Positions 35,388-54,700 of a DNA stretch of 64,000 nt are shown piece after piece. The DNA comes from Haliotis rufescens (Eukaryota), in contig NW_025963913.1 of the NCBI RefSeq assembly GCF_023055435.1, forward strand, positions 4,898,001-4,962,000, written 5' to 3'. Positions within the stretch are counted from its first letter, which is position 1. Every line of letters begins with the position of its first letter. The translations under genes and the position numbers were made by a program. The notes under the pieces were generated by a model. It was given only the letters and a program-made list of their open reading frames with translations. It had not been told where the DNA came from and ran no database searches.

Positions 35388-38300
35388 TCAATGGTATCGG
35401 ATGTCTACCCGGAGAACACACAATCACACTGGATGAAAGCGTCAAACCTGTAATTCATCCACCTCGGAAAGTTCCAGTCGCCCTCAAGGTCAAGATTAAA
35501 CAAGAAATCGAGAGGATGGAAGATCTAGGTATCATCGTGCAGCAGAATGAACCTACTCCATGGGTGAACAGTATGGTGACAGTTATCAAGCCTAACAAAG
35601 TAAGAATCTGCCTCGATCCAAAAGACTTAAGCAACGCAATACACAGAGAACAAATAAACGCTCCAGTATTGTACGTCATACTATGATGAGTCTGAAGAGC
35701 TCACACTGAATGTAGATGCAAGTTCAAAAGGCCTTGGTGCAGTGTTGCTACAGAAGTCCAAGCCAATAGCCTATGCTTCACGAGCGTTGACAGCAGCACA
35801 ACAGTTGTACGCCCAGATTGAAAAAGAGACATCAGCGACTGTATTTGGGTGTACCAAGTTCCATCACTATGTGTTCGGAAGATCACTACAAGTACAAGTC
35901 GAGACTGATCACAAGCCGCTGGAGTCAACATTCAGGAAACCACTCCTTGACGCACCAGCATGACTTTGACTTCCTTTGGCACTACAGAAATACGACATAA
36001 AGGTGAAATACAAGCCGGGTAAAGAAATGAAGATTTCAGACATGTTGAGCAGGTTCTATCTACATGAGACAACAGAGAATCTAGTTCCAGAAGTTGACGT
36101 GAATGCAGTCACATTGTTTGCATACTTACCTGTCTCACCTGAAAAAACAAGAAGAATTTCAGATAGCGACGAAAGCAGATACAGTTCTCCAAGAGTTACA
36201 GCGAGTAATTCAAAGTGGATGGCCAGAAAGTAAAGCAGAACTTTCAACTGAACTGAATGCATACTGGGCCTACAGAGATGAAATCTCCAGTATAAATGGT
36301 CTGTTGTTCAAGGGACACAAGCTCATCATTCCGAAGTGTATGAGGCGAGAAATGCTTCATATTATCCATGAACCACACCTGGGTATTGTGAAAAATAAAA
36401 TGCAGAGATGTGTTATATTGGCTATTGAAGATATGGTGTCAAAATGTGAAACCTGTGCAATCCATCACAAATCAAACACCAGGGAACCTATGATACCAGC
36501 TGAGTAGACCATGGTCCAAGACTGCTATACAGATCTGTTTGAACACAAAGGTCATCATTACTTGTTGACAGTGGATTATTTCTCAAAATGGCCAGAAATG
36601 GCTAAATTGGAAAATGAGACAAATTCAAATGTGATCATGCAGCTATCGGAATAGCCAAATGTCAAGGTATGGAATACCTAAGCGCCAATGGTCCGCAGTA
36701 TTGAATTTGACAAGTTCGCTAAACAGTGTGTATTCAAGCACACAACAAGCAGCCCGCACTAGCTCCAATCAAATGGACAGGCGTAAAGGTGTGTACAAAC
36801 TGTTAAAAAAAATCATATAGATCTATATTATTATATATTTTGACATTTGCATCGGTCTAATTCTCCAGGTTAAACTGTTCATAGTGTTATTTGAAACGAC
36901 AGGCTATGTGACTGTACGTGTACTGTAGTGTAGACCAAGATGAGATTAGGTCCATAATACGTTTCTAAAACTTAAAATACATCACACACACAAATACACG
37001 TCACAGTTTTAGATTCTGTGGGAAAGTTTCTATTATGTGATGCCATTAACAACTATTTTAGGCAAAGCATCTGTATCATTAACGACATCTGAAAATCGTG
37101 TACAGCGAAAATATTGACATTTCCGCATTTTACCAATTCACTGTTCTAAATGTAATTATTTATTCAAATAAGGTATAGCTACTTGAGAATCTCAATTACA
37201 AAACCATTGGGTGTCTGCTCTTTGTCAAAACACCAATCATCATTCCGAAAAGACTCCAAAAACCCTCTATTCGTTTTCGAAACATAAAAACCGAACCGCC
37301 ATGTTGATAGCGTTGGAAAATCACGGTTCTTTTCGCGTTAGACGAGATGCCTATATCACATCAAATATATTTCACACTCAGCTACGATACATACATCCCT
37401 GAATTCATCATACCATTAAGAATCAATTGACATTTTGTCTAAGTCACTAATACAAACGGTCCAAATGAAATCAACCGCAATATTCAAGTGTGAAACAAAA
37501 CCCTGTGCTCTGAAACCTACCGAGTGGGCTTTCTCATTTAAACAAATGTAAACAAAGCAAATTTCTAGTTTTACTTAACATTTTCTACTATTCCGAGAGA
37601 TTTAGTCGTCAGTTTGTTGCCTACATTAGCTCGGATCATTACGAATATGCAATCCTTGCAAGAATTGAGGAATAAATAAATAGAGTCTAGATACTTTTTT
37701 TGAAAAGTCAACAGAAATCGTTCCACGTGACGCAATGATATTGACGCAAAATCACACACACTGAAGGCGGTCTGCCTTCCACTTAGTATCAAGGCGAGAA
37801 TGGAACATGAAAACAAACAGAACTTGTTGATTTCAGATTGATTCTGATTACTTAACTTACTTGACTCATTTATGTATGTATGTGATCCCAGCATCACGGT
37901 AAAACCTACTCCAAACATTCCGCGTACTGCAATCATTTATGTTATGACGAGAGGTTACCGGTAGTGATGTCATATTAGTATACGTCAACATCAACATCGT
38001 TGTACATATTTGTTATTTCCTTTGAGGTGAGGGTGAACTAGTACACAACGCATTCAGTTCATGAAGTAGTTTACTGTTTCAATCTTCAATTATAATTTGA
38101 ATATCTCTTCTATATTTTTTCACCCAGTAAAATAATGCACTGCTGCAAAATGGGTACATGTATGTAGTACTGTTACTAATATAATCAAAAATGCCATAGA
38201 ATTTATGAAACTCATAATAATCAACTGTTTTTTAATCACAGAAATTGACATTCATCGTGTTATTCTTCCTATAAGATGCTTTGTGAATGTACCACACCGC

Positions 38301-38777
38301 AGCATATACCTATTTCCTTTGGAGAATTGTGAAATATTCATTGTGGCAAATTTATATAGATAGGTTGAATAAAACATGCCCTTCATTTCTTAAATTAAAT
38401 TAAATGTATACCTGAAGGAAATTCGTCACGTTATATTTTTATTAATGTATGTGTGGACAACTATTTGTTTTACATTTGGATTTTATCGTTTAATTGGCGG
38501 AACATTGACAGCTAAAGAGTGCATCAGGTGCGCGTTTCAAAATAGGGGCCGACCATTTGAGATTCCAGGGTGGAGTTGGGTCATGGTCTGTTGGGCTTTG
38601 GGTGTGCGTTTGTGGGTAGGGCTGGAGTGTGGGGTTGTGGAGCTGTTGAAGTGATAAAGCCCAACATTGTGTTTTTTCAGTCGAAATTTCCTATACTATG
38701 AACGAATATTAGTGGTAATAAATATACTGTTACTTTTTTGTGGTACCGATTTTAACGTTTCTTATGAATTGGGATAT

Positions 38778-39110
38778 AAATTCTTCACTATCAGACGATG
38801 AGCTGGACTCGTAGGCCATGTTGTTTTACCGTAAACTGGTACTTGATATATTTTGCGCTGAGAATAGACAGGAACCCAGTTGAATTGGCACCAATTACGT
38901 CATAATCTAAGGGGGGTAACTCAGGCCTGTTTAGCTCGCAAATCGAACGCCTCACAACGGCATTTCATTTTCACACTATTGTGAGCTTCCTACTTTCACT
39001 GTGAAAAAGATGAGTGTATATTTTCAAACACAGACACTAATTAATTCTAAAATTGCGTTTTGTTTAGAAAAAGAAAGAAAGTGATTTTGGCGTGTACACT
39101 TCCCCTTTAA
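38778..39110 (+). repeat. Duplicated right end of the Kolobok element, abutting its left end
   Basis: Matches 46898-47230 with 2 mismatches in ~333 bp and ends in the right TIR plus TTAA. Confidence 0.95.
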
Positions 39111-39314
39111 AGGGCAAGTGTACACGAAAATGAACCTATTTTTTTGGTACTTTTTCAACATTAAAAGTGTTAAGCTAGTAGAGTCATAGACAAAAATATA
39201 AAAATATCACAATTAATTAACATATTTTTTTCATTAAAACGATTTATATTTTTCACATTTACCAAGTGTTCTATTTCCATAACAAAAACACCATGGCTTA
39301 TGCCCCTTGCAATA

Positions 39315-39353
39315 TGACGTCATTGGTGCCAATTGATAAACAGTATGACGTCA
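39315..39353. promoter_or_regulatory. Two CRE-type palindromes (TGACGTCA) upstream of the transposase; the first is part of a subterminal inverted repeat
   Basis: TGACGTCA at 39315 and 39346. 39315-39334 is inverted at 47003-47022 (19/20 identical). Confidence 0.55.
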
Positions 39354-39438
39354 TCAAGCTTTGTTAGAGCGGCTTCACGTGGTGTATGTACAAGTGTGTG
39401 ATTCTAGCGTCTCAGGTGCGCAGCCTACTGATTTGAAC

Positions 39439-42400
39439 ATGGTATACTGTTCGGTTCCTCGCTGTTCAAATTACAACGCAAAGAAACATTATTCTAAAAT
39501 TAGTTATTTTCGTTTCCCAAAATCGCCACGGAGAAGACAACAATGGATAAAGTACTGTAAGATTCACGATGATGGATGGAAAGGTCCGTTGGGTGAATAT
39601 CGCGTCTGTGATGCTCACTTTGACACTTGCTGTCGTGTTTCGCGAGCAATGCCTTCCAGTTGTTCGACTGATCGGAAACAATTACGCCCGGATGCTGTAC
39701 CATCCTTATTTGGAAACGGGATCAAGGGACAGCACTCCCATCAAGACCCTGACTGGAGTGTTTTCGTAAACAAACGTCGTAAAGTCGAAGCATCTCGGGT
39801 AAGTTTAATGTATGTAATATCACATAAAATCTAAACACGGTAGCATATAAGGTAGCTGTTTAACACAGGAATAAGTTAGTATTTGTTCATAGTTTCACGA
39901 GATAATTAAGCATGTTAAACGTGCGTCTCGTTCACTTCCTGGAATTACTTGGACATCGATATTCGGTGATCAGCTGATCGCAGTACTACAGTGTGCTGCA
40001 CGGTTTTGTGATTTTGATAGTTGACATATGTGTGGTAAGTAATTTTCACGTAACGAACTTCATCGATTGTTTGTATTTGTTTTTTTAATTTACAGTCGTT
40101 CACCTTCACGAGCGATAAAAGTGAATTTGAATATAACTACCCCTCGATGCCCGTGGGCAGTCAGTGTGGAGATGTACCGTCCGAGAAACATAACTTGCAC
40201 ATACAACCCCCTAATTGGACAGCAGATGCCGGAACTGACACCAACCATCTCATTTCGGTAAGCTATTTAGCGACAACAAAACATACTACACGTATGTCAT
40301 TAGACATGATTAGACTGATTTAGCATTAACTGATAATTCTCAAAGTTCTGGAAAGACGTACATACATATATGTAGTATTCTTTACACGTCTTTGATGCCG
40401 TTAAAATACACAAATCACTGACATGTAGTTAATTCATAATGTGCTATCGCTGAAATTTTGTGAATGACACAGATGACAAACTTGTGAATGTTTGTACTAT
40501 TTCTATCAAATTTGTAGTGTCGAAGCAAGTCATGCCAGACTCTGATGCCCTCACTCAGCTCAACAGGTACTCAGAAGAGCCTGAATACATCCCGGTGCAC
40601 GGTAGCTGTCCAGTGTACACCGCAAACATGTGACCGTGCTACACAGTATGAGGTAACAAATTCATATTTCAAATTAATCAAGCATAAATTTATGTAAAAA
40701 TGATTTTTTTCACAATTGAAATATGTTGTACATTATATTCTTGTGATACTGTAACAGAATGTAACTGACATTTTCTAAATCTAATTGTGGCATTGTACAC
40801 TGGTGACATTTGTAACCAGGCACCAAGTGAGGCTGGCAGCAAGCATGATACACCTTACACAAGTGATGATGACAGTGACAGTGATGAAGACTACCACCCT
40901 CTTTCAAGCAAAGTCAAGTTCGAAGAATTTCAGTCCCAGCAAAAGTATGCATTGAATGTACCATTTTCCAATTCATATCAAATCTACCATAGCACGACAT
41001 ATTTAAACATCATTTGAACACACAATCTAACATGTACAATCACTTCAGTCAATCAACAAAGTAATTTGACAGTTGTTATTTTATATTTCAGGTCCCTCAA
41101 TGATCATCTTGAAGAAACAAAGTTCCTGGTGTTCAAATCCAATTTGTTGTCTTTGTTCTTGTTTTGCAAGTTATGCTTTTGTTCATGCAGAGCCACTATT
41201 TATAAAGTCTGTGGTAGTCTTGTGACTGTTCAGATACAGTGCCTTAGACACAAAGAGCATCTGTATTTCTGGAGTAGTCAGCCAGTCCACAAACAACTGC
41301 CACTTGGCAATTTGGCCATAGCTTGTGCTATTTTCTTTAGTAGCCTTTCCCCAGTAAAGGCTCTGAGGAGCTATTCAATACTGAACATGTACAGCATAAG
41401 CAGATCAACGTTTCATAAGATCCAGAGAAGCTATATTGTTCCAGCCATTTCAAGGGTGTGGTCTAAACATCAAAATCAACTCCTGCTTGAAAGAAAGGAG
41501 AAATCCATACGCCTGGCAGGGGATGCAAGGTGTTGCTCACCTGGACACACAGGTTAATCCACATTTTTTAGCTTTAAAGTACATGTATTCAAAAATCCTC
41601 TTTAGTCCAATATATTTTTTGTATATACATGTATATGCATATGAATACATATTATGTATGTGCCCAAATCATTTGAGACTACAAGCCCGAATATGGGTCT
41701 TAGCATAATTTTCAGTTAAATTTAGTGTTATTATAAGGATTATTATCAGCTGAGCTTATTCGACAGAACAGAAGTTTACTAGATTTGGGCTTCTGACTTT
41801 TGGCTAAATTGTCAACTGTGTACATGTGCGATGTAGATTGTTTAGTCTTTAGTATTCCAATGTGTGACTTGGCTGAATATGTGTAAGCATACCCATAACT
41901 GACAAATATGATAAATGCCACGGCTGACATAAAATTTAGAAATTTTCATTGCCTTTGATATATTTAATGTAACCATGTATTAGAAGAAGACATAAATTGC
42001 ACTGTATGTTATGTCAGCTTTATGTAGTCTCTGTGTTTTTTAACATTGTTACAGCCAAGTATGGAAGCTACACCTTGATTGATGTGGACACAAACCATGT
42101 TTTGGACATCCAGTTGGTACAGGTAAGAACACATATTCTTGTCATAACAAGGGTTCATGATACAGTAAAAGAAATACATACAGTTAAATACACCAACTGC
42201 ACATGATGTGACCTGAACATGTTGAGTTGTGTCCAGTGATACTTACAGACATTACATACTGAAAGTGTTGATGTTGAACATCTCTGTACAGGTGTGAACA
42301 ACTGAATTTCTATTGTTCTATTTTCAGTCGAATGAGGTGGCCAATTCTAATGCCATGGAACTTGAGGGATTAAAAAGGGGCCTTGCATTTCTTCAGGCAG

Positions 42401-44337
42401 CCAGGGTGGATGTTTCAGACATCATTACAGACAGGCACACGCAAATTAAAGCCTACTTAAGGAAGGAGGAAGCTGGCATTCACCACTGGTTTGATGTATG
42501 GCATGTAGCTAAAGGTGAATACATAGTTATACAAATCATCAATATCAGCATGATTAGATTGTAACTAATGTATTTCATCACCTAAAACGTAATAAACACA
42601 CTTCCAGGTAATTTCTGTTCAATATTATCATTATATGACATTACTAGCCATTGTACAGGTAGCTTTTAATGTTTTCAGGCATTTACAAGAAACTTCAAAA
42701 AATCAGCAAAAAGAAAGGCCTGGAAATAATCAGCTTGTGGGCACATTCCATTTCCAATCACCTATATTGGTGTGCTGCAACCAGCAAGGGCAATGCCGAG
42801 GAGGTGCAAGCTAAGTGGTTGTCGATTGCTAACCACATAGCTAACATCCATAGTGGTCATGGTGCAAGCTTCCCTTCATGTATGCACGGGGAAATTCAAG
42901 ATAGAATTTGGGTAACTGCTGGTATGTAAAATAAACAAATAAGCTTCATAATGTTTGATATAAAAGAAATTGTCTGCCACAAAAATGAGATTGTTAAAAA
43001 GTGTTATTTAGAAAAAAATTATTTTTTCTCCTCGTCTTCATAAAAAATGTGTTGGTGTCACTGATAAAACAATTGCACCACAATATCACATGCTCGGCCC
43101 CTTCTACCTTTTTGTATTGACTAAAAGTCATATTTTAACTTTCTTGATTTACTGACAAATGTAAAATGTTTAGTGACAAGGGCTGTGTATCGATACTCAC
43201 CACTAAAGATCAATTACTATGCCAATTGTTTGTAGACATTTTTTCATGACAACCCCCTCCCCCCACCCAGTGAAAATAATGACCAGATTACCAGTCCCCA
43301 AATAAAGTATCAAATTCATAACTTATTTAGTAGAAAATATATATATAATACTATGTATAAGTATATGTATTATAATTTCCAGGCACACGAGCTCACAAGG
43401 AGATTGAAAGTATCCTCAAGTCTACATATCTCCTTAAAGATGTGGCTAAACTGTCACCCCATGGGCAGACATCACATCTGGAAGGATTTCATAGCGTGAT
43501 ATGCCACTTCGCTCCCAAATTTTATCACTATCATTACAACGGAATGAAAGCAAGGTATGTATTGTGATGCTTTAAGAGAAACAAAAATAAAACTACATTA
43601 TGGGAGACTAATCTTCAGTTAATGATTGCAGAATCCTACACAGAGAAAGTATGACATTGCAGTAATTGCAATGTGTAGGCTGTGACTGTCAGCAGACTCC
43701 AGACAATTGGAGCATATAGTTTTCTCAGTCTTGATATCAGAAAGTTTTGACAATGTTATTATAACCATTACCATACCATTATGTGTACATCATGATATAT
43801 ATATAATATAATTACAATCTGTGACAATAAGAATACTGTAACAGGTTGCTGATGTCTGCACTCCATTTCAACGAGAATGGTAGTCGGCACATTGCAAACA
43901 CCAAGAATGGACACGAGAAATGGAGTGTTTCTTATCCTAAGAGCAGAAACTGGGAAGCTGCTGCTAAACCCCTCAAGACAAATCCAACATACGGTATGGA
44001 TGTTATTGGTGATAAGTGGCTTTACATGAGATCCATCAACATGGACTTTTCAGGAGGTTGAATCCTGTTTTTTATGGACCTGAAATAGTTGTTAGCATAT
44101 TGTGTAAAATCTTTTACAGTACAATGAAAAGCTGTTATGTGATTTTGGTGTATTATTTTTTCAGAATATGTTGGCGAGCTGCTACATGAAGTGTCATACC
44201 TCCGAACAGAGTTTACGAGTTTTAACCTTGCCAACAACTCCCTCAGTGAGAACCAGCCACCCTGCATAACTGACACTCATGGAAAGAAACAACAAAAACA
44301 GATTGTTGTCAGAAATCATAAAACCAGATTTCAATAA
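39439..44337 (+). CDS. Kolobok THAP-domain DDE transposase, 11 exons, ~744 aa
   Basis: GT-AG exons 39439-39798, 40096-40257, 40518-40652, 40820-40944, 41092-41552, 42055-42122, 42328-42514, 42679-42921, 43383-43554, 43845-43993 and 44165-44337 join in frame (2235 nt). THAP motifs CSVPRC..FRFP..W..VCDAHF..AVPSLF. Core motifs GDARCCSPGHTAKY, TDRH, FDVWHVAK, QTSHLEGFHS, ALHFNEN. Confidence 0.9.
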
Positions 44338-44350
44338 AACAGTATTTATT

Positions 44351-46939
44351 TTAGTGAGAATAGAGGAAACCCGTATACACATCCGATGGAAATCTTTCAC
44401 GAATTTTATGTACAACACAAGAAGGAATAACTTTTCGATGATTCTTTCCTAACTTTTGCCAAATCCAGTAGGTGAATCTCCTGTAGGCGAGATGTCGGTA
44501 AATTCTGAAAAGCATGAAAATAATTTTGAATACAGTGCATTAAAGGTATTGCCATTTTTTCTCTTACAAAACGTTACAAATATCATGTACTTTTAGAAGA
44601 TGGATATGGAGTGGTTCTAGGGGGTTCATGCAAGATGATGTTTTGGGGATTTTTTTAAAACAAATATTTTCAAAGTTTCCATGGTAAAACCTTTGACATA
44701 GACTAAAATGGCAGCATTGCTTGTTTCCAAGTGACGACAAGCAGTTCTTAACACACCCTACAGTATCCAGTGTGTTAGACCTATTACATGATTCTATCAA
44801 TAAATATAGAATCTATTATCTAAGAAGGGGTGGAGGAGAGGGATCTTACTTGACTAACACAGCACCTCACTGGTCAATTCAAAGATGCATAATGAATTCA
44901 CAAATGTCAAAAAAGCTGAGTTAACTGTTCCAATATAATCATATCAAGTTAAATGACATAGGTATAACAATTTCCTTGGAAAGTATGTGTGACGGTGCCT
45001 TGTCAACAATTCAGTCATGACTTATACAATTGATCATGTTTGCATGGTATGTTTAATACTATTGCTTTGAATATGATTACAAAACTTGTCCGAGAAATAA
45101 ACATTTAATGAATTGGAGAATTATTTCACTCGTCATATTTGTTTGTTTTACTTGACATATCTTCAAATACAATATACACATTTAAAAACAAGTCGAAAAT
45201 TTGTTTTAAAATCCTGACTCGTAGTCTACAATAAACAAGAGAAGACTTTGGTCACTGATGAAAGTAAATCAGGCATTTTTTCCCAAAATTTGTTTCAGGT
45301 ATTTTTATGTTTCATGAAGCTAATACATTCAAAAAACGTAAATGATGGTTTTAGCAACAAAAACCTTTGTCCCTTGATGTAACTTAATCTGAGAAAAATT
45401 CTCATCCCTGGAAATAAAATTATGAGATTATGGAAGTTGAATTTCTTATTTAAATTTTAGTGAAATTTGGGCGTTCAAATTGTTCTACAAACATGTAATC
45501 CTCTCTTGATAAAGCATACAACTATTTTATGAATTATTAGAATGTATCATACTTGTGTACTGGTTCATCATCTCCTATCGGACCACTGGTGTCAATGAAC
45601 TCATTGTAGTACGCCTCCATTCCATACTTGCTCAGTGACACTTCATAGAGGCCAGGGTGGTAAGTGATGCAGCTGAAGTTGCAGGTAGATGTGTCATCAA
45701 GCTTATTCTGGACAGGAGCAACATCAACACAACACAGCTCCTCTACCTCAGACTGCATTCCCACACAGCAACCACATGTACACCTGTAACATTATTGCAT
45801 CAGGTATATTATTTTTCATGATTTACACTTTGTGTAAGTACACAGTTCATTACCAGGCCAAATTAATAAAATAATATTAGGTGAAAACAATTTTAACATT
45901 TTTACTAAAGCATATGCAATTAATAGTTACAACACAGAGTATCGGACTTGAAGTGTTCATGATGTACGAAGGATAAAACATATTTTATAACGCCAAGTAA
46001 ATTATAATAGTGGCACAAACTCATGGTTACTGTTAGGTCTATTTAGAGGTATCAAATATCTGCCTGAAGTCATTTTCCAGTGACCAGTTATACTAGGGTA
46101 TGTTACAGTTTCCCAGCAATGTTGCAATGGCTTTGTTGTGATTCCGTGGTGAGAGCAAACCAATATTATAAACAATGATCTATTAAACTGATGTCGAACA
46201 AAACACAAAATATTGGGACTCATCAGGGCCTACTTTTCAAAAGGTGCTAGTTTCGTACAACGGGTGGCAGATCGGACAACCGATTGAACACGACATCGAA
46301 CAATACGACAGTCGTTTTGAATATGAATTTGGATCTTAAATATTATTTCATAGATCTGGAGAGGTTAACATGTGGCTCTTGTCAGTATGTTCACAATCGG
46401 AAACAACGTGTTGACTCGACAGCCTGCGGGACGAACACCTAAATCGTGTTACGCAAAGAATAGCAACGGTTGGCGACATACTAGTATTAAAATTGCCATG
46501 TAGCCTGCGAAGTAGCCCATGGGTGGTGAGGATAGTGAAACATTTTTGATAAGCTCGGATTGGACGATATTGCTATGGAATCGTAACAGGGTGGGACAGG
46601 ATAAATGGTTACAGAAGAGTATGGGTTAGGCTACCAGGCATGGCAAATATCTCTAAGAATATGTTTCGCTTCTGGAAATGTACAATGAGCTGTAACAAGA
46701 TATTTAGGCCAAGTTTATTCTTACCACAGTGGTCTCGTCGGTTGTTCAGTAGATGGGTCGGAGGCTGACGACACGAATAAGAGGTCTTCGCTTGTTTCTT
46801 CTTCGTCGCCATATCTTGACTTTATCTTGAAGTTCGGGAAATGTTCAGGTGTTGGCTCAAAAGCATATGGCTTTACAATTTCTGTCTGGTCAAACGAAAA
46901 TTCTTCACTATCAGACGATGAGCTGGACTCGTAGGCCAT
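44351..46939 (-). CDS. KolX accessory protein, P2X7 intracellular 'ballast'-like Cys-rich domain, 3 exons, ~199 aa
   Basis: Exons 46939-46725, 45783-45553 and 44504-44351 total 600 nt in frame. Motifs PYAFEP, WCTCGCC..M...EELCC, CITYHP, YRHLAYRRFTYWIW..LG...RKVIPSCVV..IR..FP...YTGF. Confidence 0.88.
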
Positions 46940-47679
46940 GTTGTTTTACCGTAAACTGGTACTTGATATATTTTGCGCTGAGAATAGACAGGAACCCAGT
47001 TAAATTGGCACCAATTACGTCATAATCTAAGGGGGGTAACTCAGGCCTGTTTAGCTCGCAAATCGAACGCCTCACAACGGCATTTCATTTTCACACTATT
47101 GTGAGCTTCCTACTTTCACTGTGAAAAAGATGAGTGTATATTTTCAAACACAGACACTAATTAATTCTAAAATTGCGTTTTGTTTAGAAAAAGAAAGAAA
47201 GTGATTTTTGCGTGTACACTTCCCCTTTAAAGTATCTGGTTTCAACTGGCCAAAGGGCACTTTCAGGATTTTTATAGGTCATTCTTCTATATTATAACGT
47301 AATCTGAAATACTGTCCTGATCCAAAGCAGATGCTCACCACGGACATGACGGTGATCGAGTTTTGCAGTGACTTAGGTTAAGAATTGCGGAGTTATGCCC
47401 CTTTTTGTCTTTGTACATGCATGTGGACATCGCCCTCGTGTTTTGACGTCAAAGCTGAAAAGTTGTCCAGGTTTCAAATCCTTCAATTCCCATTCGAAAT
47501 TCTTCAAGCAAGCAGTATATTGATTGAGCTAGATAATCGAGATCATAAGCAAGCATAAGCATATGCTTGATCTAGATAGCTCTACTCCAGGAGATCTTTT
47601 GTATTCTTAATGTATTACAATTATTTTTTATTTTTTTCCTGTTTAAATATTTCAGCCATTTTGCACATTTTTTTTCAGT

Positions 47680-50600
47680 GGTTCCTACAGATGATGATGT
47701 CATTCATGTAACAGCATCTTATTACAGATCACAGAGGAAAAACGAATCCCCTCATCAAGTTGAGGTATTTATAATATATGATGTTAAAGTAATGTTAATT
47801 TTATTTGAAGACATGTACCGTTCAGGGTTCACTCTAGGAATGTTCTGACATGAATTTGAAAATTTCAAATATTCCAGAGACACCCAAACTTGCCCATACA
47901 GCATGTTAAAATGCCCCATTGTATTTGAAAATGTGGGCCTTTTTTCAAATTTAGGAACAAGGCCCCAGCCTAGAGTTATCCCTGCATATATAATGAACAG
48001 GCCTACATTCATATTGTATCAGTTACAGTTATTCATAATACTCATCAGTAATTGTTTGTCACTTTCACCAGGATTATAATTACTTTGTTTCAATTCATGT
48101 GACTGTTAATAATTAGATCTTTAACTCAGTATTTTTAAATCAGTTGCTACTGGTTACTGTGGTATAATCTATTTTTAAATGATTGTGAAAAGGAATGTAA
48201 TTAAAATTATAAATAGTAAAACTTATTTCATTTATCCTCCAGATATATTTCGGTTGTCATCCACTTTCTGTGGAGACTGCTGTATGTTCCTGTTCCATTG
48301 GTCAGAGTCAGAGTTGTGGCCACATCACAGGTGTTATGTACCAGATAGCAAACTACAAGTGTCTTGGTGTTACTGCCAGAGTTGTGGCCACATCACGGAT
48401 GTGATGTACCAGATAGCAAACTACATGTGTCTTGGTGTTACTGTCAGAGTCAGAGTTGTGGCCACATCACAGGTGTGATGTACCAGATAGCAAACTACAA
48501 GTGTTTTGGTGTTACTGTCAAGGTTGTGGCCACATCACAGGTGTGATGTACCAGATAGCAAACTACAAGTGTCTTGGTGTTACTGCCAGAGTTGTGGCCA
48601 CATCACAGGTGTGATGTACCAGATAGCAAACTACAAGTGTCTTGGTGTTACTGTCAGAGGTGTGGCCACATCACAGGTGTTATGTACCAGATAGCAAACT
48701 ACAAGTGTCTTGGTGTTACTGCCAGAGTTGTGGCCACATCACGGATGTGATGTACCAGATAGCAAACTACAAGTGTCTTGGTGTTACTGCCAGAGTTGTG
48801 GCCACATCACGGATGTGATGTACCAGATAGCAAACTACATGTGTCTTGGTGTTACTGTCAGAGTCAGAGTTGTGGCCACATCACAGGTGTGATGTACCAG
48901 ATAGCAAACTACAAGTGTTTTGGTGTTACTGTCAAGGTTGTGGCCACATCACAGGTGTGATGTACCAGATAGCAAACTACAAGTGTCTTGGTGTTACTGC
49001 CAGAGTTGTGGCCACATCACAGGTGTGATGTACCAGATAGCAAACTACAAGTGTCTTGGTGTTACTGTCAGAGGTGTGGCCACATCACAGGTGTTATGTA
49101 CCAGATAGCAAACTACAAGTGTCTTGGTGTTACTGCCAGAGTTGTGGCCACATCACGGATGTGATGTACCAGATAGCAAACTACAAGTGTCTTGGTGTTA
49201 CTGCCAGAGTTGTGGCCACATCACGGATGTGATGTACCAGATAGCAAACTACATGTGTCTTGGTGTTACTGTCAGAGTCAGAGTTGTGGCCACATCACAG
49301 GTGTGATGTACCAGATAGCAAACTACAAGTGTCTTGGTGTTACTGCCAGAGTTGTGGCCACATCACAGGTGTGATGTACCAGATAGCAAACTACATGTGT
49401 CTTGGTGTTACTGCCAGAGTCAGGGTTGTGGCCACATCACAGGTGTTATGTACCAGATAGCAAACTACAAGTGTCTTGGTGTTACTGTCAGAGTCAGAGT
49501 TGTGGCCACATCACAGGTGTGATGTACCAGATAGCAAACTACAAGTGTCTTGGTGTTACTGTCAGAGTTGTGGCCACATCACAGGTGTTATGTACCAGAT
49601 AGCAAACTACATGTGTCTTGGTGTTACTGCCAGAGTCAGGGTTGTGGCCACATCACAGGTGTTATGTACCAGATAGCAAACTACAAGTGTCTTGGTGTTA
49701 CTGCCAGAGTCAGGGTTGTGGCCACATCACAGGTGTGATGTACCAGATAGCAAACTACAAGTGTCTTGGTGTTACTGTCAGAGTTGTGGCCACATCACGG
49801 ATGTGATGTACCAGATAGCAAACTACAAGTGTCTTGGTGTTACTGCCAGAGTCAGGGTTGTGGCCACATCACAGGTGTGATGTACCAGATAGCAAACTAC
49901 AAGTGTCTTGGTGTTACTGTCAGAGTTGTGGCCACATCACAGGTGTGATGTACCAGATAGCAAACTACAAGTGTCTTGGTGTTACTGCCAGAGTCAGGGT
50001 TGTGGCCACATCACAGGTGTGATGTACCAGATAGCAAACTACAAGTGTCTTGGTGTTACTGTCAGAGTTGTGGCCACATCACAGGTGTTATGTACCAGAT
50101 AGCAATCTACAAGTGTCTTGGTGTTACTGTCAGAGTTGTGGCCACATCACAGGTGTGATGTACCAGATAGCAAACTACATGTGTCTTGGTGTTACTGCCA
50201 GAGTCAGGGTTGTGATCACATCACAGGTGTTATGTACCAGATAGCAAACTACATGTGTCTTGGTGTTACTGCCATTCCAGATGATGTCTGCAAAACTTCA
50301 CTTCCCCGAACCTGGCATCTTCCAAGAGGAGAAAAAATTAAGGGAGCTCAGTCAGATGATATAGTTGTTCAAGGGTATGACACTGAGAACCCTACTCGTG
50401 TCACTGAAGGTGTCCATTCTAACCTCTACAATCCTTTGCAATCACCTCTACCACCAATCCAAAACTTAGTTGTTTCACTAAGGGACATTAGGCCGAATCT
50501 GTTACTTCTGACAGTCTCTGTACCAAATTCTAAGTCTGAAGTGTTAACAAAATTTGGCATGTTTCCAAAAGGGAGTGTGTTATCGTATCAGCAAGGACTT

Positions 50601-51736
50601 ACAAAGGGTACCATTATAAATGATGATAGTCACACAACCTTTCCAGACTTTCCACTCAAAAACAGTATTGGTCCCTCAAGTATTCCAACAGATCACAGTG
50701 ATTCACAAACAGTCAACCTAGAAGCTCTCTCTGTGACTATTGATCAAAGTATTGAGATTGAGAAATCAACTCGGACACAGTCATCGCTTCCCAAGTGGCG
50801 CAAAGTCAGACAATCCAGATTAACTGCATCTGTTGCTGGTGCAATAATAAAGAAAAAGAGAGGTAAATTTAAACATTTTTTGATTATTTGTATAGGTTGT
50901 CATGTCAATGTGCTTAGGAGAAAAATTGAACAATGACTAACAGATAAACAGGAATCATCCTGATCTTTATTCATAACTAAATACTCTTGCTTTCAGGATT
51001 TGATAACTATGCCACCTTCTTAAAAACTGGAAAGAAGATCATGACAGCGCCAATGAGACATGGTCGGGCATGTGAGCCAACTGCAGCCCAAACCTATGCT
51101 GATGTGAGAATAATAAATTTCTACCTTGATTACACAAACATATAATTTCTAACAAGTTCTGTAATCCTAGAAATACTTCAGTAGATGATTGTAGCAACTT
51201 GTTTCCATTTTCCCCCCACCCAAATGTCTTATGACACAGATTCCATTTCTAAATTGACATGTGTTGAAAATGTGAAAATTCTACTAATGTTTTTATCAAA
51301 TATCACCAGGTTAATGCTAACAAATATCCTTTTTTGTGTGTGTTTTCAAATGCAGGATACAAGTGTGAATATGTTCAGGTGTGGTGTGGTTATCAGCCCA
51401 ATCTGTCCCTGGCTTGGAGCATCACCTGATAGAAAAATCTACAATCCTAGTCGAAACCCACCCTATGGCTTACTGGAAATAAAATGTCCAACTATTCCCA
51501 AATCAAGATTAGAATACTTGCATGTGTCTGACGGTGAGTTTCAACATAAAACAAACCACAACGTCTACTACCAAATACAGATGCAGACGGCTGTAACTGG
51601 CCTGACATGGTGTGATTTGTTTGTGTGGCACGAGGACTATCATCATTTAGAAACTCTTTATTTCAACCAACATGACTGGGATACAAAAAGCAAGACAAAA
51701 TTGGATGATTTTTTCTTCAAATATTTTCTTAACTGA
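47680..51736 (+). pseudogene. SWIM zinc finger + YqaJ/lambda-type exonuclease gene, disrupted by a minisatellite
   Basis: Exons 47680-47764 (YRSQRKNESPH), 48243-50862 (CSC..G....CGH SWIM, TSLPRTWH, TRTQ..W...R..RLTAS), 50997-51103 and 51356-51736 (GASPD, EIKCP, YYQIQMQ). Probable ATG remnant at 47346. Confidence 0.87.
48303..50273 (+). repeat. 68/74-bp minisatellite, 28 units, with a 414-bp higher-order repeat
   Basis: Counted 27 intervals (17x68 + 10x74 = 1896 bp). Identical ORF translations recur at +414 (48364/48778, 48710/49124). Confidence 0.97.
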
Positions 51737-54700
51737 ACTGTCAATTTCAATATTGACAAAATGGCAACTGAAAAGCAATTTTACCTGAATGGACTTGATA
51801 CCCACCTGCGGAATATTAGAAATTATTGTAAATACTCTTTTACTGTACTATTAAATTGATTTATTGTTGATTTTTTTCAGTTATTCTATAGCATAGTTAC
51901 TAAAACCTTTTGAAGAGAACATGATATCAGATCAAAATTACAGGATTCAGTATCATACAGCAATACAATTAACCCACATAAATAACAAACACATGAAGTA
52001 CAATAAATACACATTTATTTTTAATTTGTGTATTTACAACAGTGTAATAACAATAGACACATTTGCACTAGGAAAGCACTGTATATTAATTACTGATAAA
52101 TAACAATATAATTTTCAGGATACAAATTGCAATTACTTCTCAGAGTGTATTTTGTGTACAAATTTTAGAAAATTGAAAAATGTCAGCTTAAATATTAATC
52201 ACAATTGTTTTACCCAGGGGAGATAACTTTCATCAGCATATAACTTCTCAGACTTTTCCTTTCATCCATGATTAAGAAATGGTAAGCAATAAAAGCAAAA
52301 CGTATGGACCCAGCTTACCAATGTATCGCAAAACAAAGCAGGCCAAACATTCATGTGTAAACATAGTCACTGTTTTGAAATACAAAATAACTGACAATAA
52401 AGAGCATTAATAGCATTAATAGACAAGCATCGTAAAGGGCTTGAAGATCTGAAATTACATGTCATGTACAGCTGGCATAATGCAGTATTTCATCTTCATA
52501 AGCCCATTATTATTCATAATTAAACTTTGTTAACTGCAAATAGCAGAAAAATTGCTGACATTAAGCAACAATTCACTCACACAATAGCTCAAGTGACAGT
52601 CAAGTTTGATTCTACAATACATAATTTGCTGAAACACAGTATGAGCACATGTAATAATACTTCATAGCAATTGTTTGTCTGTGATACAAAATATAAAATC
52701 CGCCATACATTCGTCTTGATCAGATAAATTACAATTACAACTGGTTTCATTGGCCTGTTACTATAAGTGAAAATATCAACAATTCATAGTTAATCACAGG
52801 TTGTCTCCCCTTACACCACATTATCATCTCTTTCCTATAAATGAAATTTCAAATACAAAAGGTGGAATTATCTATTTTATGAAGCTGAAATTGAACAACA
52901 CGTACGTTACATATCAAACAAAGTTATTGTGACATTTTCATTAACATGATTAATACTCATCTAACCCATGTATTACAACAGTTATCTCAGACTTTATATT
53001 ACAGAAGAAATTCATTTACATTTATATGTCTACCTTTTTTTGTACAAGTACCCCTGAGCAAGGTATTACTCATACTTTGGGTGATATTCAATGAGTACAA
53101 GTGTACATGTACCAGCTACTCAATATCACATGAACAAAATGTTGGTGAAACTGCTGTTAAAACAATCAGATATCAACATTTGATGTTCAAGGCTAAGAGA
53201 TGTAACATGCTGGATATTGCTTGTCTCACTTGGCTATAAGGGGCCTTCTAAACAGAGATAGTAAGTTTACTCCACTCCACAGCTGATTTATTGACCCAGC
53301 CATTGATAAGGGAACTGTACCATTTAGTAGATGGTACTCTTTTACTCGTTTGATATGCCTTGCACTGTGGATCCTATGACTGGAAATTTGTTGATTTTCT
53401 TCAATTTCGGTTTGCTCAAACTGACCAGCAGAACTCAAGAAATGAGGAGTATTTATTGACACACCAGTTCCTTCCAATAGCTTCCCTATACGAAAACCCT
53501 TGTCACCCATGATGACACACTCTAGCTCAAGCAATCCCAACAGTCCACTCAGTTTGGTGATTTCAATGTCAGACACACAACCTGAGAACATGGCAGATAC
53601 AAAGGTTAATGCCCCATGAGGAGCAACACCCACCAGGCCTTTCCATGTATTCCTACTCTTGTAATGAGAATACATTTGGGAACCTAAATGTACAGAGGAG
53701 GGTCTCTCGGTATACATTTCTGTGCAGTCAATGATGACTCGAGTTCTAGGGTATAATAATCGGAAGTCTTCAGGCAGGAGGCCAAATGTTTATGCTACCG
53801 AAAACAAAATAGAGATAACTGCACCAAGTCAAAGCCCTTCTGCTTATGGTAGAGACATAACAATTGAACCTAACAGATAAACCTACTTCACTTGAACCCA
53901 GCTTAATTCTGACAAGAAACATGAATAACTCATCAAATAATGGAATAGAGTGAGAATTGTTTGGTTTTGGAAGACAGGATTCACCTTGATAATACATACC
54001 TCTCATGTTAGATGCTTTAGGTTTGATAAAATAAAATAAATGCTTGCAATGTTTGAAATGATGGAAATCCTGTGTAATGTTCCAGCAATTTATCATCATA
54101 CATGAATTTACGAACTCCGAACTTTTCAAGTTCAAGTTGTCTGTTTAGTTTTTCAATCTTGTCATCCTTTTCCTTGAGTTGCCTCTCTTGTTCACATAGT
54201 TTTTCATTGAGTTGGTCTATGTAGCCTTGTGGTCAGAGACCATTGCATCACATTCTGCTTCACTGTAACACACCAATTATGATGGATCACTATTACTTCT
54301 TAAACACACAAATAACAATAAATATGTTTCTGGAATTACAAATAAGGCAAAATTAATTTAATATGATTGTCATTCTTACTATATCTTTGATGGTGACTGT
54401 GGTGGGTTCCTTGTGGGAGTTTCCTCAGGTGGTGAAATTTTCTGAATCTCTTGATCAACATCATCTGAAATACATATTTGAAAAGTAAATATATTTCTGT
54501 TATGGTCACTTACTTGCCCTATGATATTTCCTATATTGCTGAAGCAGTGGTCACTGGTCAGTGTCATTACAGGGTATTTCGTAAAGTTTTTTTATTACCT
54601 ACATGTGTGTCATATGTACTTGAAATATTACGAAGACTTGCAGCAAATCTTATTTCACTGATATACAGACTGGTTACAATTAACATTACCTTACCTCTAT

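Follow-up and report, generated by a model that had tools for sequence, protein, structure and literature searches.

The question raised by this locus is whether a mollusc genome retains a complete two-gene Kolobok transposon, and what its second gene, KolX, would contribute to its movement. The window is a stretch of 64,000 nucleotides from Haliotis rufescens (assembly GCF_023055435.1, contig NW_025963913.1, positions 4,898,001 to 4,962,000, forward strand), in which one copy of an 8,116-bp element occupies 39111-47226. The element is almost certainly a young Kolobok of the Kol0 type. The best explanation of the locus, and a probable one, is an intact and recent Kol0 element in which the transposase cuts and pastes at TTAA and KolX is likely a Zn-stabilised helper that binds the transposase. 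Its structure, open spliced genes, family transcription, TTAA duplication, recent movement and the ballast fold of KolX are taken as established.

The architecture and the relation of KolX to the ballast domain of P2X7 are already published and would not surprise a specialist. [quoted passage not shown]

Ends, target site and classification

The termini of the element are AG...CT, and its 20-bp terminal inverted repeats (TIRs) agree at 18 of 20 positions, which gives the 5'-RR...YY-3' form of Kolobok ends. TTAA stands on both sides of the window element, of a copy on contig C601 and of all derivatives sampled (2/2 of 708 bp and 19/19 of 652 bp), while a copy on contig C46 is bordered by CTAA and TTAA. 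The preliminary description of this DNA rightly took the TIRs and TTAA to be intact. The range it gave, 39439-46939, correctly runs from the transposase ATG (plus strand) to the KolX ATG (minus strand), but the element extends beyond it on both sides. Subterminal inverted repeats lie about 190 bp inside each end, their core motif being at 204 nt from either terminus, and are retained in the 652-bp MITE; they are likely the binding sites of the transposase, through its THAP domain.

Kolobok elements are recognised here by a TTAA target-site duplication (TSD), RR...YY TIRs, a DDE triad with a C/DxxH signature, an N-terminal THAP domain (C2CH, P/W/F and an AVPTIF box, here AVPSLF) and an H2CH finger, all of which are present; a second gene, KolX, with seven ballast cysteines marks the Kol0 type. 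The element shares with Kolobok-1_XT/Kol0 (PMC9587614) the TTAA target, RR...YY ends, DDE with DxxH, a zinc finger placed after the second D and before the E, and KolX; it differs as a mollusc family that is intron-rich (12 introns). The family was not found in the supplements of that paper as covered here (10/10 places in file 3, a few of the 365 in file 4) and may be in Repbase; the Haliotis entries found in those supplements are KolobokP families. KolobokP (PMC9587614) has long direct repeats (LTDRs) on both sides of the genes, which a 335-bp direct repeat in the window resembles, and a His-Me finger nuclease. By contrast, the present element has no such nuclease, its second gene is KolX and its TSD is strictly TTAA. 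A KolobokP-like LTDR was considered for the 335-bp repeat and rejected, as the repeat is a lone truncated right end and is not found beside the C601 or C46 copies; the pair of features that defines KolobokP (LTDRs at both ends and the His-Me nuclease) is thus absent.

Similarly to T2-MITE/XKol of Xenopus (PMC6004289), the element combines an AGGRR-like terminus and TTAA with a THAP, DDE and H2CH transposase, and few autonomous copies with many MITEs. It departs from XKol in its left end (AGGGC, one departure from AGGRR), its spliced transposase and the presence of KolX. Two genes within one TIR element also occur in PIF/Harbinger (PMC9179366), which differs in superfamily and target and has a Myb/SANT helper, not a Zn ballast; the present transposase, unlike that of PIF/Harbinger, has its own THAP domain.

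Recent movement and derivatives

The genome search covers 1.33 Gb in 615 contigs (assembly G000), with 40 of 764 element candidates scored; first-look counts of 1,398 and 1,303 are end candidates and not copy numbers. A full copy on G000:C601 differs from the window element at 2 of 8,124 bases, both intronic, and has unrelated flanks; the near-identical copy that the preliminary description expected elsewhere is thus found. In addition, window positions 31541-64000 are colinear over about 30 kb with G000:C146:1927146-1904925 (mostly 94-98% identity), a segment that is either a segmental duplicate or the other haplotype. The C146 segment lacks 38780-47226 and has a single TTAA in its place, an empty site; thus, the insertion is younger than the C146 duplication. 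Because of the near-identical C601 copy and the empty TTAA site in the paralogous segment, the element is judged from sequence to have moved very recently. The candidate active, TTAA-specific transposon of the preliminary description is upheld in its intact genes, TTAA and very recent movement; that the element is still competent today is somewhat probable.

No empty allele of the C601 insertion occurs in the assembly among 40 candidates scored for it. An X9 contig that joins 38779 to 47229 resembles an empty allele of the window insertion but was rejected as evidence of insertion polymorphism, since its flanks are part of a dispersed repeat and identical junction letters occur in a paralogue on C579. 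The C46 copy is about 98.7% identical (97 differences); its KolX is open and its transposase is broken, with a premature stop (codon 90) and a frameshift. Older broken copies (79-90% identity) are dispersed in the genome, as are many other KolX-like loci of 30-77% identity. A further family (L036-L039, on G000:C501, C599, C368 and C101) is older, non-autonomous and some 72-80% identical to the element; it has lost the catalytic core but still has the THAP exon, the final exon of the transposase and exon 3 of KolX.

Shorter derivatives are of two kinds. Internal-deletion derivatives of 708 bp (n=2) are >99% identical to the element ends, and the 652-bp MITE family is 93-96% identical to them. 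The 19 sampled MITEs differ by a mean of 0.75%, and 2 of 171 pairs are identical, a divergence that is biased low as the copies were picked among candidates tied for the top score. A further locus, the 20th, is built of MITE pieces and is not counted. At L061 (G000:C68:20683300-20684600), a full 652-bp MITE is abutted by an inverted partial copy, a further case of elements inserted side by side.

One such case is part of the window locus and is absent from the preliminary description. Positions 38778-39112 (335 nt) match the right end at 46898-47232 with 99.4% identity (two mismatches) and lie head-to-tail against the left TTAA. Base 38882 of this sibling fragment is G, as in the 708-bp derivatives and the C46 copy, where the full element has A. 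In the simplest history, the sibling would have inserted at the TTAA of the locus, the full element would then have entered the right-hand TTAA of the sibling, and a deletion with 2-bp microhomology would have removed the left part of the sibling and a few flank bases. In consequence, the locus offers two right ends to anyone cloning it.

Splicing of the two genes

The transposase gene is modelled with 11 exons and encodes 744 amino acids (aa), and KolX with 3 exons encodes 199 aa. All introns (10/10 and 2/2) are GT-AG and neither frame has an internal stop, as the preliminary description had read them. The models are identical letter for letter to the database proteins P0004 and P0005, which are automated annotations of H. 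rufescens on two contigs each. Splicing is judged from Logan contigs of the runs X1, X4, X9 and X11, which are guessed to be RNA on the strength of their GT-AG joints only, none of the listed runs that contain the element being recorded as RNA; the contigs carry neither strand nor expression level. In these four probable RNA runs, 7 of 10 transposase introns (3, 5, 6, 7, 8, 9 and 10) and both KolX introns are joined exactly at the modelled sites. In total, 9 of 12 introns are joined as modelled, and none of the three outcomes that the preliminary description named as refuting it is observed. Transposase introns 3 and 5 are spliced in one run each, and introns 1, 2 and 4 are joined in none of the contigs of the four runs.

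The two genes are convergent, with stop codons 13 bp apart. AATAAA signals lie at both stops, and a spliced KolX contig continues through transposase exon 11 (44164-44504). The 3' ends of the two transcripts may overlap and form double-stranded RNA.

The transposase

The THAP domain spans residues 4-91 (Pfam, E 4e-17), and the product of exons 2-4 is likely a disordered linker. Exons 5-11 encode D405, D472 and E614, a DxxH motif at 493-496 and an H2CH finger (H552, H557, C567 and H569) between DxxH and the catalytic E. In an alignment of 101 of 120 listed homologues, among 358 found, the three catalytic residues and D493/H496 are invariant (101/101), and the H2CH residues are each kept in 100/101. 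The order of these core motifs, compared by eye, is that of the Kolobok-1_XT row in Data S5 of PMC9587614. The core has no Pfam match above the cut-off; matches to Doppel, DUF5636 and Arfaptin fall below it and are disregarded. The predicted structure has a mean pLDDT (predicted local distance difference test) of 80, with the linker (117-236) under 50, and is RNase H-like, nearest in fold to the ISCth4, P-element and Hermes transposases. The ratio of nonsynonymous to synonymous substitution rates (dN/dS) is 0.42-0.86 in six comparisons with dead copies, two of which are significant; the value against the copy on C581 is 0.43 (p 4e-6).

By analogy with the Kolobok family, the THAP domain would bind the terminal and subterminal repeats, and D405, D472 and E614 would cut and join the DNA. 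The transposase would excise the element and paste it into TTAA sites, and the same machinery would likely mobilise the 708-bp and 652-bp non-autonomous derivatives. KolX would be a partner that helps to assemble, import or tune the transpososome.

KolX and the P2X7 ballast

KolX is Cys-rich, and the whole protein matches the Pfam family P2RX7_C (PF20478, E 1e-16) and, against PDB, residues 473-594 of rat P2X7; exon 2 alone has no PDB sequence match. The predicted structure (mean pLDDT 82, >90 across most of residues 71-190) places 14 P2X7 chains at the top of a Foldseek search (best E 7.8e-5; next unrelated, E 3.2). VIA-align superposes it on the P2X7 ballast with Z 12.3 and a root-mean-square deviation of 2.9 over 117 residues, the next of 48,161 chains having Z 3.7. 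All seven Zn cysteines align: C73, C75, C78, C89, C90, C110 and C178 of KolX with C477, C479, C482, C498, C499, C506 and C572 of rat P2X7. The resemblance to the ballast noted in the preliminary description is therefore real. Homology of KolX and the ballast has been published by Kojima and Bao 2022 (PMC9587614), who propose that the P2X7 tail derives from KolX. Among the papers searched, theirs is the one relevant paper that mentions KolX; the parts of it covered here state no function for KolX and describe many Kolobok lineages without it (section 10).

KolX is like the P2X7 ballast (PDB 6u9v) in its fold, the seven cysteine positions and the equivalents of R546, H547 and R578. It differs from the P2X7 ballast/nanor/ZCD group (Rump et al. 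2020, PMC7016195) as a stand-alone protein with an acidic N-terminus and no channel, and has the H547 equivalent, where PMC7016195 reports H547 to be absent outside deuterostomes. The literature search returned nothing on nanor function. The structure was predicted from an alignment of 101 rows (99 of 149 listed relatives covering both halves, plus P0002). Each exon 2 cysteine is retained in 98-99 of 100 relatives. The KolX N-terminus has 16 D+E per 70 aa and a PYxFEP motif that is shared by 42 of 100 relatives.

Since dN/dS against dead copies is low, KolX is not a neutral passenger and, as judged from sequence, is under purifying selection. Four of eight such comparisons give 0.23-0.32 (Fisher p 4e-6 to 0.004); the other four (0.46, 0.58, 0.73 and 1.19) are short or very close and not significantly <1. 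Comparisons with four older derivatives give 0.22-0.37. Among relatives, P0177, P0184, P0205 and P0236 fuse the P2RX7_C ballast to an N-terminal THAP domain and have no transposase core; P0184 also carries a SAP domain. Such fusions form 4 of 13 longer KolX relatives scanned and 3 of 101 alignment members, and none of the 13 joins a transposase to KolX. These proteins may represent fusions caused by deletion, merged annotations or genes that were domesticated, and their domain pairing points to a role of KolX on DNA.

A complex of the two proteins was predicted from transposase residues 262-744, KolX residues 15-199, two Zn and GDP. It scores 0.40, where the best of three controls attains 0.00; the runs agree in at least 21% of their contacts, and the partner pLDDT is 65 or more. 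In the benchmark, 51 of 78 solved pairs and 2 of 108 mismatched ones attain the pass mark, and the passes at or below 0.60 comprise 5 solved pairs and every one of the 4 passing mismatches. Among 44 blind neighbours, 7 attain the same mark. The structure prediction that the preliminary description proposed for KolX with the transposase thus sets the pair above its controls and lends weak support to binding.

Of the five residues that contact GDP in rat P2X7 (R546, H547, R574, R578 and K583; PMC7016195), KolX has the equivalents of three (R152, H153 and R184 for R546, H547 and R578), while the positions of R574 and K583 hold V and S. The R152 position is kept in 93 of 100 relatives, R184 in 86 and H153 in 31, and all three in 27. 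The isolated human ballast, which unlike KolX has all five contacts, binds GDP at 2.6 uM (PMC9574498). Loss of the R574/K583 type of contact is usual outside mammals, where GDP binding is undemonstrated (PMC7016195). The suggestion that the element is possibly nucleotide-regulated gains no positive support from these residues, and regulation of Kolobok by nucleotides through KolX is unsupported speculation.

Weighing the explanations

Several observations weigh against an intact, mobile pair. Long unspliced contigs cover transposase introns 1-5 (X1) and part of 1 through 8 (X4); the runs are guessed to be RNA, and their reads cannot separate the window copy from the C601 copy. Intact copies number two among the 40 candidates scored. 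The transposase departs from its homologues at 7 of 106 columns conserved in at least 80% of them, with S345 where 99/101 and W674 where 94/101 have G, and I654 as a newer change. The left TIR core of the abundant MITE is not that of the element and lies nearer to older families, and this MITE may be moved by another transposase. At position 121 KolX has S, a site that is C in 87 of 100 relatives, and the dN/dS values against dead copies combine branches under selection with neutral ones and may be distorted by CpG decay. The complex score, obtained without alignments, lies in a range where a pass is wrong more often than right unless the guess is likely beforehand. From such points it could be argued that the transposase is weak or dead and that another Kol0 transposase produced the near-identical copy in trans; the changed glycines, the recent change at 654, the scarcity of intact copies, the abundance of unspliced transcript and the diverged KolX-like loci, which show the genome to contain other Kol0 families, all lean this way. 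However, both S345 and W674 are shared with older copies, one about 10% diverged, and thus the lineage moved despite them; no residue of the catalytic triad, the DxxH motif, the THAP domain or the H2CH finger is missing, the fold is confident, and the C581 comparison indicates constraint. A dead transposase is therefore considered rather improbable. That both genes are domesticated host genes with leftover transposon ends is close to negligible: they are spliced, annotated and have dN/dS <1, and Xenopus is reported to have domesticated Kolobok transposases (PMC6004289), but the near-identical copy lies at an unrelated site, the 94-98% identical paralogous segment has an empty site, the insertion is within another repeat and the TIRs are shared with young MITEs.

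The role of KolX is less settled. A helper that binds the transposase, by analogy with the Myb-like protein of Harbinger, which does so (PMC9179366), falls a little short of an even chance; it is favoured by the selection on KolX, the complex score relative to controls and the THAP-ballast fusions. KolX could instead act on the host side of a young Kol0 element, as an anti-silencing or chromatin protein at the element that does not touch the transposase. The coexistence of purifying selection with a weak interface prediction agrees with this role, and the acidic N-terminus, the basic C-terminal half and the THAP fusions of relatives suit a chromatin factor. Mutator-like elements encode anti-silencing proteins, which offers a precedent. 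The many Kolobok lineages without KolX fit a host-side role as well, but the complex exceeds all three controls and the present KolX has no recognisable domain for DNA binding or chromatin, so that the host-side role is judged unlikely. A further possibility is that KolX senses guanine nucleotides, GTP or GDP in the ballast pocket switching the transposase on or off. The related THAP-DDE transposase of the P element uses GTP, a parallel in favour of a sensor. The R546, H547 and R578 equivalents, the retention of R152 and R184 in most relatives and the affinity of the human ballast for GDP (PMC9574498) favour such a sensor, which is nonetheless quite improbable: the R574/K583 positions are V and S, the R, H, R set is complete in few relatives, binding outside mammals is undemonstrated (PMC7016195) and the conserved arginines could equally contact DNA phosphates. 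A more specific form, in which KolX belongs to the transpososome as a direct, nucleotide-sensing subunit that docks on the transposase core, binds GTP/GDP in its pocket and exerts control in trans, is very doubtful. If true, KolX would provide, in trans, the control by nucleotides that is built into the P-element transposase in cis, and reconstituting the intact pair would show what the P2X7 ballast did ancestrally.

The value of the intact, recently moved Kol0 element is practical. It is a recently moved copy with both genes open and spliced, 652/708-bp mini-elements and strict TTAA targeting. The pair is a ready substrate for the function of KolX and for guanine-nucleotide binding by an ancestral ballast, a question that bears on the role of the P2X7 ballast. 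No Kolobok transposition assay was found by title or start of abstract among the matches listed from the openly available literature (20 of 39 and 18 of 18). The element could add a TTAA-specific vector unrelated to piggyBac.

Features of the element

Table 1. Positions in the window of the Kol0 element, its two genes and the adjoining sibling fragment.
Feature	Position	Strand	Basis
Sibling right-end fragment	38778-39110	+	First KolX codons (minus strand) and right TIR; shares the left TTAA
Left TTAA target-site copy	39107-39110	.	Sequence; single TTAA at the empty site in G000:C146
Left TIR, AG start	39111-39130	+	18/20 matches to right TIR
Left subterminal inverted repeat	39298-39334	+	84% complementarity with 47003-47039 over 37 nt
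Transposase exon 1, THAP domain	39439-39798	+	C4, C9, C57, H60; P27, W36, F61; AVPSLF box; Pfam THAP E 6.6e-19
Transposase exons 2-4	40096-40257, 40518-40652, 40820-40944	+	pLDDT <50 for residues 117-236
Transposase exons 5-7	41092-41552, 42055-42122, 42328-42514	+	Part of catalytic-core block 41092-44337
Transposase exons 8-11	42679-42921, 43383-43554, 43845-43993, 44165-44337	+	Part of catalytic-core block 41092-44337
KolX exon 3, basic helical ballast half with C178, R152, H153, R184	44351-44504	-	Pfam P2RX7_C E 1.4e-9; aligns with rat P2X7 546-594
KolX exon 2, Zn-cluster cysteines C73, C75, C78, C89, C90, C110	45553-45783	-	Both flanking junctions spliced
KolX exon 1, acidic N-terminus, PYxFEP motif	46725-46939	-	pLDDT 50-69
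Right subterminal inverted repeat	47003-47039	-	Pairs with 39298-39334
Right TIR, CT end	47207-47226	-	20 bp
Right TTAA target-site copy	47227-47230	.	Sequence; empty-site comparison with C146

The surrounding window

The element lies inside another dispersed repeat (38300-38777 and 47231-47470) with at least 40 copies of 76-97% identity. The preliminary description set the two genes apart from everything around them; in a spot check of seven other long frames, two are pieces of another transposon. A YqaJ-like exonuclease frame at 51185-51733 (+; Pfam E 1.9e-7) faces a Harbinger-type DDE_Tnp_4 frame at 53229-53789 (-; E 1e-30), and the pair is present in the C146 paralogous segment too; we take this pairing to suggest an ISL2EU-like two-gene transposon. 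A 134-aa frame at 36103-36504 (+) has no Pfam match at E 0.01 and is presumably a piece of an LTR-retrotransposon pol gene, which it resembles. Three near-tandem units of about 6.8 kb (98.7-99.3% identity) fill 1-20296, with more diverged copies beyond; they are either a segmental array of young age or else an assembly repeat. Finally, a tandem array of about 2 kb with a 68-74-bp unit occupies 48301-50274; as it is largely missing from the colinear C146 segment, this array appears to have expanded recently.

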